Of a stretch of DNA of 42,338 nt, positions 26,280 through 28,449 are shown piece after piece; within the stretch, counting starts at the first letter, position 1, and each line of letters opens with the position of its first letter. Below the pieces are notes generated by a model. It had not been told where the DNA came from. It made no database searches and saw only the letters and a program-made list of their open reading frames with translations. This DNA is from a virus, in UHGV virus genome UHGV-0127092; one strand, written 5' to 3'. The position numbers and the translations under genes are program-made.

Positions 26280-26522
26280 CTATGTCAACTCAGGCAGTTT
26301 GAAGCCAGCCATGTCTTCTGCCCGGATGGGAGGTGACAGGCAGTCAGCAAAGACCAGTGAACCATCGAGCAAGATAACGAAACTCCACCCTCTGAACAGG
26401 CTGGCGCTACACCAGTCGGCCTTAAGCGGCACATCTGGCATCCTGTCCGGGAAGGTTGGGTAATGCCCTGCAAGCCACTCCATGGCGTCGCAGCGGTTGA
26501 TGGTGTAATTGTCGTACATCAT
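26280..26522 (-). CDS. Hypothetical protein
   Basis: 80-aa ORF, 4-nt overlap with the upstream gene. Confidence 0.45.
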   Translation of the reverse strand: MMYDNYTINRCDAMEWLAGHYPTFPDRMPDVPLKADWCSASLFRGWSFVILLDGSLVFADCLSPPIRAEDMAGFKLPELT

Positions 26523-27301
26523 GCCTCCTGCTGCGGTGCTGCTGGCAGCGGCATTTTCATCCAGTGAGTAATGCCAGTGATAGACTCGTATTCTTCATTC
26601 CAGTCAACAAAATTATGCCCATCCCAAATGTAACCGTGATGCACAAACTCACCATCAAAAAGCCATATATCACGCTCCCCCTTTTTAGGCATCCGCTCAC
26701 TGCAAGCCACCCAACCATCAGGAATCACCGGAGAGTTGCCACCCTGAACAGTAGGCATATCCGGACCTTTGCGAATCGCCCTGGCAAGATCGATTGGGTC
26801 GTCGTACAACCAGTCACCTGTTTGCGGATGATTGGCTTCTGCCAATTGTGCAGCCCACTCAAGGCCGTCTTTGTGTCCTTGCAGATAGTCCAGCGGTAAC
26901 TCATCACTATTACTTACAGGTTCGGCCTGAAGCATGGCGGCGCGATAGGCGTTCCAGCCGACAGCTTTTCCGTGTTCAAACGCGCTGTCAAAGTCATCAT
27001 CAATTTCCATCGCAGCGGGCACAGATACCGGCGCTGGCGGGGCGGTATAAAACTTCGTCCCCAGCGGAAACAACTTCATCGCTTTTTCTCCCTTAATGAT
27101 GCGATAAGTTGATTTCCCGCCAAGGTCTACCGTTCCATCCATAATAAGGCCGTATCGCTTCTCTGAAACTTCACCAATAGGATCTGCTTCCAGTGATGCC
27201 AAAGCAATCCGTGCCACTTCCATTTGTTCGCTACGAGTAAGCCCGTTTTCAAGCGGATTTTTAATGAACAATTCAATACGTTCTTTGGTAATAGTGCTCA
27301 T
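26519..27301 (-). CDS. Hypothetical protein, possibly DUF551-type C-terminal domain
   Basis: 260 aa; Trp-rich C-terminus (WVACSERMP...HHGYIWDGHNFVDW...ITHWMKMPLP) recalled as typical of a prophage family; not verified. Confidence 0.5.
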   Translation of the reverse strand: MSTITKERIELFIKNPLENGLTRSEQMEVARIALASLEADPIGEVSEKRYGLIMDGTVDLGGKSTYRIIKGEKAMKLFPLGTKFYTAPPAPVSVPAAMEIDDDFDSAFEHGKAVGWNAYRAAMLQAEPVSNSDELPLDYLQGHKDGLEWAAQLAEANHPQTGDWLYDDPIDLARAIRKGPDMPTVQGGNSPVIPDGWVACSERMPKKGERDIWLFDGEFVHHGYIWDGHNFVDWNEEYESITGITHWMKMPLPAAPQQEA

Positions 27302-27304
27302 GGG

Positions 27305-27739
27305 TTAGTCCTCACCTTTCTGTTGCACTACCGGAACCGATAAATCGACGCACCAGGAGATAACGCCGAATTGATCATCGTTCTGCGCTTCACCCCAAAC
27401 GTAATATTTTGATCCTGGCCGACCCATTGCCGGGTCAAATACTTCTATGCCGCGTTCTGCCGTTAACGACATCAGAATCTGATGCAGGCCGCCTTTGATG
27501 TTCAGTGACGGAACGGTCAGGAAGTAAATAAACCCGTAAAGCAATTCGGCCTTGCGCTGGCTTCCGTAAAAATACGGGATTTTGTAATAATCCAGCGCGT
27601 CGTCGAGCCAGTCTGTTTTGTCGTGGAATTTCTGATGCCAGCGTTCCACTACCTCATCGACAGGTTGACCGGCAACCATTGCAACGCAGGTAGCCATGCA
27701 GGTGTTAAATGTTGGCTGCATTTGATGTTGAAGCATCAC
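27305..27739 (-). CDS. Hypothetical protein, possible papain-like/C39-like cysteine peptidase fold
   Basis: 144 aa; N-terminal Q-x5-C-x3-C-V-A-M pattern and a downstream His (GGLHQIL). Weak motif-level inference. Confidence 0.4.
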   Translation of the reverse strand: MMLQHQMQPTFNTCMATCVAMVAGQPVDEVVERWHQKFHDKTDWLDDALDYYKIPYFYGSQRKAELLYGFIYFLTVPSLNIKGGLHQILMSLTAERGIEVFDPAMGRPGSKYYVWGEAQNDDQFGVISWCVDLSVPVVQQKGED

Positions 27740-28449
27740 TCCCCCTTACCGATGCCAGCGGCGCGGTCTATGCGTTCGATTTCAGCCAGAATTAAAGCCC
27801 CTGCTTTTACCAGGTTGCGACGGCGGGCATTTGGCTTCCACCATGAAGCATCCCAAGGCCACCCCCACGGCTTGCCACCATTGCGGTTAACAGTTCCTGT
27901 TTCGTTTATGTAACAAACCGCCGCCATTGCCAGTTCGCCGTTGCAGTGCTCGTCATCATGCTCAGGCGTCCATCCCTCAACTGATTGATGGCGTTGACGC
28001 TCTGCAATTACTGACTGAACGGCATTGGATAGCGATTTCACACCCTGCGCACGCACTTCAGCCAGGAAAGCGTCGGTGGCTGGGGTTTTGGCATTCTCCA
28101 ATAATGCTATTGAATCCTGAGCGTCACAAAGACGTAATAGTGCGTCCATTTGCTCGCCATCAGCGTCATAGCTGAATAGACCATGATCATCATGATGTGC
28201 TTCCATATTTTCTGAGGCCTGCAGTATTCCAGACTTCAGCCCAGCATTCTCCACAGCCAGCGCCGCGCACTTGGCCTCAAGGTTATCAATCGTGATTCCA
28301 GCAGAACGACACTCCCGCAACGCCGTTTCTAGTTTTGATTCAAGTTCACCGAACTTACGGACAAGATATTCAGCGTTTGTTTCGTTAACCTTTAAATCTC
28401 GTGGAATGCACTTGCCACGCAGAAAACCTTCCATCTCAAATAATTTCAT
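27736..28449 (-). CDS. Hypothetical protein with N-terminal coiled coil and conserved Trp-rich C-terminal domain (Ea22/DUF550-like?)
   Basis: Start placed at MKLFEMEGF with ATGA overlap to the upstream gene; C-terminal EHDDEH...PWGWPW...WWKP motifs. Confidence 0.45.
   Translation of the reverse strand: MKLFEMEGFLRGKCIPRDLKVNETNAEYLVRKFGELESKLETALRECRSAGITIDNLEAKCAALAVENAGLKSGILQASENMEAHHDDHGLFSYDADGEQMDALLRLCDAQDSIALLENAKTPATDAFLAEVRAQGVKSLSNAVQSVIAERQRHQSVEGWTPEHDDEHCNGELAMAAVCYINETGTVNRNGGKPWGWPWDASWWKPNARRRNLVKAGALILAEIERIDRAAGIGKGE

Follow-up and report, generated by a model that had tools for sequence, protein, structure and literature searches.

The 42,338-nucleotide (nt) virus genome UHGV-0127092, referred to below as the window, has the overall organization of a Rac/lambda-like Escherichia coli prophage, and also carries a cI-like S24 repressor gene, RecE/RecT, and an integrase. 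On its minus strand, a series of features is arranged in the order O-like, DnaC-like, Ren-like, A, B, C, D, a hairpin, an intrinsic terminator, NinB, NinG, and Q (Table 1). The four genes designated here as A–D are the subject of this analysis, and the central one is gene B, whose product is predicted to be a stand-alone cysteine peptidase resembling the C39 family. A previous examination of the letters by themselves (the sequence-only reading) had described the four as overlapping open reading frames located between the DnaC-like gene and a tR2-like terminator. All four lie on the minus strand where that reading had placed them, and the terminator is present. However, A is separated from the DnaC-like gene by the Ren-like gene, which had been overlooked and is the upstream edge of the variable slot accommodating A–D, and the overlap exists at A/B and C/D but not at B/C.

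Each of the four genes matches a PHROG family with an E-value of 1e-42 to 1e-57, and the exact proteins are found on public contigs (51 for A, at least 1000 for B, 6 for C, and 122 for D), which led us to conclude that A–D are real genes and not chance open reading frames. The source assemblies of the identical proteins are from E. coli. The start codon of A overlaps the stop codon of the Ren-like gene (ATGA). The A/B junction is a TGATG overlap when B starts with ATG and a GTGA overlap when it starts with GTG. B and C are separated by a 3-nt spacer (TAA-CCC-ATG), where the ribosome-binding site is GGTGAGGA, and at C/D the overlap is again ATGA, AGGAGG being the ribosome-binding site; ribosome-binding sites precede B, C, and D. 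The true start of B is likely the ATG at 27736, giving a protein of 143 amino acids (aa), because its homologs start with MLQHQ and the RefSeq annotation is also 143 aa in length.

Table 1. Features of the minus-strand region containing genes A–D (window coordinates)
Feature	Coordinates	Strand	Remarks
O-like gene	30498-29644	-	
DnaC-like helicase loader	29659-28787	-	IstB_IS21, phrog_50
Ren-like winged-helix gene, 114 aa	28790-28446	-	phrog_142 'Ren-like exclusion protein' (E 2.7e-28); weak winged-helix Pfam matches
Gene A, 237 aa	28449-27736	-	ATG start
A C-terminal domain, residues 139-237	28035-27739	-	
Gene B, 143 aa	27736-27305	-	from ATG 27736 (144 aa from GTG 27739)
Gene C, 260 aa	27301-26519	-	
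C DUF551 domain, residues 196-257	26531-26716	-	PF04448
Gene D, 80 aa	26522-26280	-	
Perfect 9-bp hairpin, CGATATGGG-AATC-CCCATATCG	26267-26246	-	between D stop and terminator
tR2-like intrinsic terminator	26237-26212	-	stem-loop 26237-26222, T-run to 26212; terminator scan
NinB	26079-25582	-	

The product of gene B had been proposed to possess a Q-x5-C...H pattern compatible with a papain/C39-like fold, and the present analysis bears out both points. The pattern is formed by Q8, C14, and H86 in the numbering of the 144-aa form, which is used throughout, and the predicted catalytic set is Gln8, Cys14, His86, and Asp102 (7, 13, 85, and 101 when counted from the ATG). Searches of Pfam, NCBIfam, PADLOC, and the PDB with the single B sequence gave nothing meaningful. 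In particular, the Peptidase_C39 model PF03412 did not match the window protein at E-values up to 0.1 or up to 10, leaving it below the Pfam threshold, and a profile built from close relatives did not match any PDB entry. The relationship to C39 emerged only with a wider family profile and scans of the individual members. An AlphaFold model calculated on the alignment of close relatives had a predicted local distance difference test score (pLDDT) of 88 and a predicted template modeling score of 0.85, and is thus confident. In the model, Cys14 occupies a helix N-terminus, a strand carries His86, and Asp102 is located just past the next strand. The predicted structure is therefore a papain-like alpha+beta fold with the nucleophilic cysteine at a helix N-terminus and the histidine on a beta-strand; the sequence-only reading would have been contradicted by a model lacking a peptidase fold, which was not the outcome.

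The predicted catalytic residues are highly conserved in the family. In 23 close relatives, all from Enterobacterales, Q6, Q8, P9, C14, C18, and H35 are invariant, as are S78-L79-N80, G84, H86, and D102-P103. An exhaustive profile search against 1.84 billion representatives found 856 clusters (50% identity) at E-values up to 1e-3 and 533 at E-values up to 1e-10, and nearly all of the relatives are stand-alone proteins of 135–175 aa. Among 136 relatives with no more than 50% mutual identity, Gln8 and Cys14 are each retained in 98%, and His86, Asp102, and Pro103 in 100%. When 128 relatives were scanned individually against Pfam, 40 matched PF03412 (E up to 1; best 2.4e-6), and other matches were to C58 (eight relatives) and C39_2 (five relatives). 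The B family profile placed the Q, C, H, and DP of B on the corresponding residues of LahT150, at an E-value of about 1, and the Q-x5-C and H-x15-D-P spacings are those of C39 domains. In a viral fold library, the structural neighbors of B were all labeled 'uncharacterized' except for one Bacillus phage protein labeled as a C39 domain. The structural model and the family analysis support the assignment of B as a predicted stand-alone, C39-like cysteine peptidase of clan CA. Since the window protein itself falls below the PF03412 threshold while 40 of the 128 relatives match it, B is, by sequence, a remote relative and not a curated member of PF03412. In our view it belongs to a branch of the C39/clan-CA peptidases that is remote, stand-alone, and carried by phages; the idea is not new at the level of the fold.

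The family is widely distributed among phages. A tblastn search detected B in 195 phage records, all with less than 60% identity, and the phages include Kuttervirus and other Ackermannviridae, Vequintavirinae, Queuovirinae (9g, JenP, and Seurat-like phages), Pseudomonas Samunavirus, and Vibrio Enhodamvirus. The family is common in strictly virulent phages (Kuttervirus, Vequintavirinae, and Queuovirinae), and it occurs in temperate phages too. In eleven other contexts of B, we looked for a partner or substrate gene that recurs beside it and found none. In Enterobacter prophages, the homologs are located in the exo-xis region beside zf-dskA_traR and DUF4222 genes, and in a Serratia prophage the homolog lies past a DNA methylase gene in the nin region. 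The homologs of Vequintavirinae, Queuovirinae, Vibrio, and Pseudomonas phages are situated within arrays of small early genes, and one further homolog is in a Mu-like early region. Because the neighbors never repeat across these contexts, B appears to be an early gene that works alone. In Salmonella phage Maynard, a Kuttervirus, the homolog (2486–2935) is placed exactly between the genes for the topoisomerase II large subunit and a gp52-like protein; this adjacency is limited to the single genus. The Kuttervirus large subunit has the sequence YAGSNFNDEDE and lacks an HAGGK motif; we take its SNFND segment to be the equivalent of the GyrB HAGGK loop from what is known of type IIA topoisomerases, and not from an alignment.

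Two further observations concern the B family. On a 140-kb metagenomic phage contig, a B homolog and a gene for a Tad2-like (anti-Thoeris) protein are present in one array of small early genes (1726–1983 and 5001–5429). In addition, the listed members of the 90% identity cluster of B include Ea22-like proteins that have the Trp-rich domain of A and lack any B sequence. Fusions of B with Ea22 were considered as an explanation of these entries and rejected; since the B sequence is absent, they are likely an artefact of listing or clustering. We likewise considered A or C, both of which contain GG dipeptides, as substrates of B, and rejected the idea because the neighbors of B differ everywhere and the GG of C is absent from HkaE.

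The C39 domains of PCAT1, ComA, and LahT (PF03412, MEROPS clan CA) are the double-glycine leader peptidase parts of PCAT/AMS ATP-binding cassette (ABC) transporters, whereas B is a 143-aa stand-alone, predicted cytoplasmic protein encoded by phages in early operons. Neither an ABC transporter gene nor a gene for a double-glycine leader peptide was found beside B, whose neighbors here are Ea22-like and DUF551 genes, and the protein itself has no signal peptide, propeptide, membrane segment, transporter domain, or wall-binding domain. The matches of the B family to C58 (YopT/AvrPphB/PfhB2) are much weaker than those to C39, and the C58 enzymes are larger, secreted effectors. A C39 domain that acts in the cytoplasm on a host protein has been described: StbD-CT cuts GyrB at the Gly-Gly of the HAGGK site (bioRxiv 10.64898/2026.05.07.723447). 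StbD-CT is a CdiA-type C39 toxin of Citrobacter rodentium (PDB 8ssm/8ssk), and shares 12% identity with B without a sequence-profile match, so that it is not a close relative. Its delivery relies on contact-dependent inhibition, for which it has an entry domain, and an immunity protein goes with it; B has no such partners here.

We infer that B most likely acts on a cytoplasmic host protein (less likely on one of the phage). It would cut this target specifically at a Gly-Gly-like site of small residues, using Gln8 as the oxyanion residue, Cys14 at the helix N-terminus as the nucleophile, and a His86-Asp102 pair, and the cleavage would serve as a step of host takeover or counter-defence. An anti-defence role, which the sequence-only reading had raised for the cluster, is a plausible hypothesis. 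Candidate targets include an immune protein, a ubiquitin-like conjugate, and the ATPase loop of GyrB/ParE, which StbD-CT cleaves. The adjacency in Kuttervirus and the missing HAGGK motif point to topoisomerases, but no further than as a lead: B has no particular closeness to StbD-CT, the topoisomerase neighborhood is restricted to one genus, and lambdoid phages need host gyrase, so that gyrase is a less likely target in a lambdoid phage. Extended to the whole family, the proposal would be that minimal, cytoplasmic C39-like proteases such as B form a large class specific to phages, with at least 856 clusters at 50% identity, whose members act early as takeover or counter-defence effectors and cut a defined host protein at a Gly-Gly-type site; we put this forward tentatively and consider it rather doubtful as a whole.

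The other three genes are of types familiar from lambdoid phages. A had been called an Ea22-like, Trp-rich protein, a description that holds for its construction and not for its sequence: A has 16 PHROG matches and no Pfam match (PF13935 included), and a BLASTP comparison revealed no sequence similarity to lambda Ea22 (E 0.42). The protein is a mosaic of an N-terminal plus helical/coiled module (about residues 1–140) and a C-terminal domain, with the break point at about residue 140–150. Among the matches listed, residues 1–140 are common to all 120 relatives and the C-terminal domain is found in only about 50; other relatives end in different domains, such as HNH. All six tryptophans of A are within the last 99 residues. 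This Trp-rich, acidic domain carries the motifs AERxRQ..EGWTPEHDD and WPW..WWKP..RRxLVKAGALIxAEIERxDR, and E12, E20, E25-H26-D27-D28, E85, E87, and D90 (domain numbering) are invariant or nearly so. It has 2378 homologs and is portable, occurring either alone (about 100 aa) or behind N-termini of the PF13935 or lambda type. Its model is a confident four-helix domain (pLDDT 90).

A published study (PMC10834534) presents Ea22 as a tripartite, tetrameric scaffold whose C-terminal domains can be exchanged and whose phenotype is pro-lysogenic. A shares the tripartite build and the swappable C-terminal domain described there for lambda Ea22/Ead-Ea22 (PF13935, IPR025153), and its C-terminal domain recurs behind genuine lambda-type Ea22 N-termini. 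In contrast, the domain is predicted to be all-helical and that of lambda Ea22 was reported to be mixed alpha-beta; moreover, the Ead/Ea22 genes of HK620 and lambda are in the early-left exo-xis region and A belongs to the rightward operon, in the interval from ren to tR2. We presume that A is a scaffold of Ea22 architecture bearing a portable Trp-rich acidic helical domain.

The description of C as DUF551-like was borne out by a match to PF04448 that covers the whole model and scores 33.1 bits (E 1.1e-7), the cut-off being 22. C also matches phrog_60 and other PHROGs. The protein has three parts, namely a conserved N-terminal module of 45 aa, a middle part that varies, and the C-terminal DUF551 domain; the domain is shared with E. 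coli CPS-53 YfdS, HK620 HkaE, and P22 EaA, and residues 1–45 are 80% identical to HkaE, whereas the middle region differs from those of the three proteins. DUF551 has no known biochemical function, and the phenotypes of YfdS are indirect (PMC4776307, PMC10834534). D matches phrog_34180 (E 4e-45) and is present in 14 phage records, mostly of Kagunavirus, as well as in numerous prophages of Enterobacter and E. coli. No meaningful match and no recognizable domain were found for D in Pfam, NCBIfam, PADLOC, and the PDB, and the single-sequence PDB search was likewise empty for C.

The sequence-only reading had treated A–D as a cluster of genes dispensable for growth. The dispensability agrees with the content of the slot between ren and tR2 in other phages: lambda has nothing there, and HK225, HK639, and phi80 carry different cargo of seven, three, and one genes, respectively. 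In contrast, the idea of a conserved unit did not hold. None of 50,697 phage records and 5,426 complete E. coli genomes covered 26000–28900 at 80% or more, and the abundances of the exact proteins differ from gene to gene. The best match (69%) was E. coli KCJ3K291, in which B and D are kept and only fragments remain of the DUF551 gene and an HNH gene. The relatives of A and C are known mainly from P22-like and lambda-like phages, where the exo-xis region is their usual place. The GC content at third codon positions is 0.46 in A, 0.55 in B, 0.47 in C, and 0.69 in D, compared with 0.66–0.75 in the flanking DnaC-like, ren-like, and NinB genes, and these differences suggest modules of different origin. 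Because the four genes occur independently elsewhere, the cassette is best described as ordinary lambdoid mosaic cargo.

A scan of 25400–29000 detected no promoter-like site, against 2.8 expected by chance. With no promoter of their own, a position upstream of the tR2-like terminator, and translational coupling to ren and to each other, A–D should, by analogy with lambda, be expressed jointly with the replication proteins at an early time after infection or induction. In the proposed scheme, four independent modules, not a four-part machine, would have been inserted into the variable ren–tR2 slot of a Rac/lambda-like E. coli prophage. On balance we consider it probable that the cassette is mosaic accessory cargo in the ren–tR2 slot of a pR-type rightward early operon, composed of independent modules of which B is a C39-type peptidase acting on a host protein.

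Several points weigh against this interpretation. The window protein reaches no sequence threshold in Pfam or the PDB, and hence the assignment of B rests on a predicted structure, family profile matches, and motif conservation. Papain-like folds also carry deamidase, transglutaminase, acyltransferase, and amidase chemistry. In addition, a C39-like protein has recently been reported to act as a glycosidase (PMC13642728). The literature that names the B family assigns no function to any member, and none of A–D matched a PADLOC profile at E-values up to 0.1. Co-transcription and termination are deduced by analogy with lambda, and the tight coupling of A–D could reflect a joint function in this phage. 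With the last point the question arises whether A–D form one functional system, such as an anti-defence operon or an effector accompanied by its own regulators, since they are tightly packed, translationally coupled, and apparently within one transcription unit up to the terminator. We regard this as unlikely: the combination is not found at 80% or more coverage in the phage records and E. coli genomes searched, the abundance of the exact proteins differs gene by gene, B has wholly different neighbors in other prophages and phages, and A and C are themselves internal mosaics.

The function of B can also be understood in other ways. Prophage accessory slots often carry defence genes, and the neighboring Ren-like protein is an 'exclusion protein', so that B or the whole cassette might protect the lysogen by defence or superinfection exclusion. 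Apart from pR, however, no promoter-like site was found within the cassette or ahead of it, so that A–D would be silent in a repressed lysogen; the lack of PADLOC matches and the frequency of the B family in strictly virulent phages also argue against such a role, which we consider improbable. Even less likely is a peptidoglycan endopeptidase or amidase for lysis or entry, like PeiR/PeiW, CHAP, or NlpC/P60 enzymes. B lacks a signal peptide, a membrane segment, and a domain for binding the cell wall, its catalytic cysteine is only 13 residues from the N-terminus, and the gene is located in an early operon and not in a lysis cassette, being found elsewhere among early or DNA-metabolism genes. 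B might finally be a catalytically inactive C39-like domain that only binds a peptide or protein, as in HlyB-type transporters. The retention of Gln, Cys, His, and Asp at 98–100% in 136 diverse members would not be expected without catalysis, and with the complete catalytic set kept, an active enzyme is favored over a degenerate binding domain; we consider an inactive B highly unlikely.

The downstream boundary of the cassette is the terminator, which lies 43 nt past D and consists of a GGCCTC-TTCG-GAGGCC stem-loop followed by the T-run TTTTTCTTT / TTTTTCTTTA. Its position between ren and ninB is that of lambda tR2, and alignment with the lambda ren–ninB spacer revealed a common AGGCCTTTTTxTTT, comprising the 3' part of the stem and the T-tract. 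The element thus resembles lambda tR2 in position, stem end, and T-run; the ren–tR2 interval is empty in lambda, whereas here it contains 2.2 kb of cargo and the extra hairpin. With a GC-rich hairpin, a T-run, the ren–ninB location, and placement on the transcribed strand, the element has the features of a tR2-type intrinsic terminator, and termination is predicted. In the 81-nt stretch 26205–26285, which includes the 9-bp hairpin, the minimum-free-energy fold has two hairpins (z = -4.2). The 9-bp inverted repeat at 26246–26267 could be an RNA stabilizer, a protein-binding site, or a mosaic joint. Another inverted repeat, GCATTTAAG-TCCC-CTTAAATGC, is located at 26120–26141 between the terminator and ninB, and is homologous to 'IR4' annotated at the same relative position in phage phi80.

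Some other loci of the window were recorded in the course of the analysis. Directly downstream of the cI-like repressor gene (31173–31940), a gene for a 159-aa DUF6932 protein and, overlapping it, a gene of 310 aa without a Pfam match occupy 32120–33528 on the plus strand. In lambda, rexAB holds this position, so that the pair is a candidate for a defence module expressed in the lysogen. A protein with the nucleotide modification associated domain 5 (Nmad5) is encoded at 34806–35474 on the plus strand, in the early-left operon upstream of RecE (36548–39454) and RecT (39460–40578). A 127-aa open reading frame without a Pfam match is found at 24405–24788 on the minus strand, between NinG and Q in the nin region.

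For the lambdoid phages, the cassette apart from B is typical mosaicism, and it indicates that the ren–tR2 slot of the nin region is another place to which exo-xis ('ea') modules move. The greater significance lies in gene B. Eukaryotic viruses routinely turn proteases against immunity, whereas to our knowledge few phage-encoded proteases acting on host proteins are known. The B family is a big, conserved, and functionally uncharacterized group of tiny and, judging from their residues, apparently active cysteine peptidases encoded in the early regions of many unrelated phages, whose hosts include Enterobacterales, Vibrio, and Pseudomonas. Identification of the substrate of B could reveal a new mechanism of host takeover or anti-defence.

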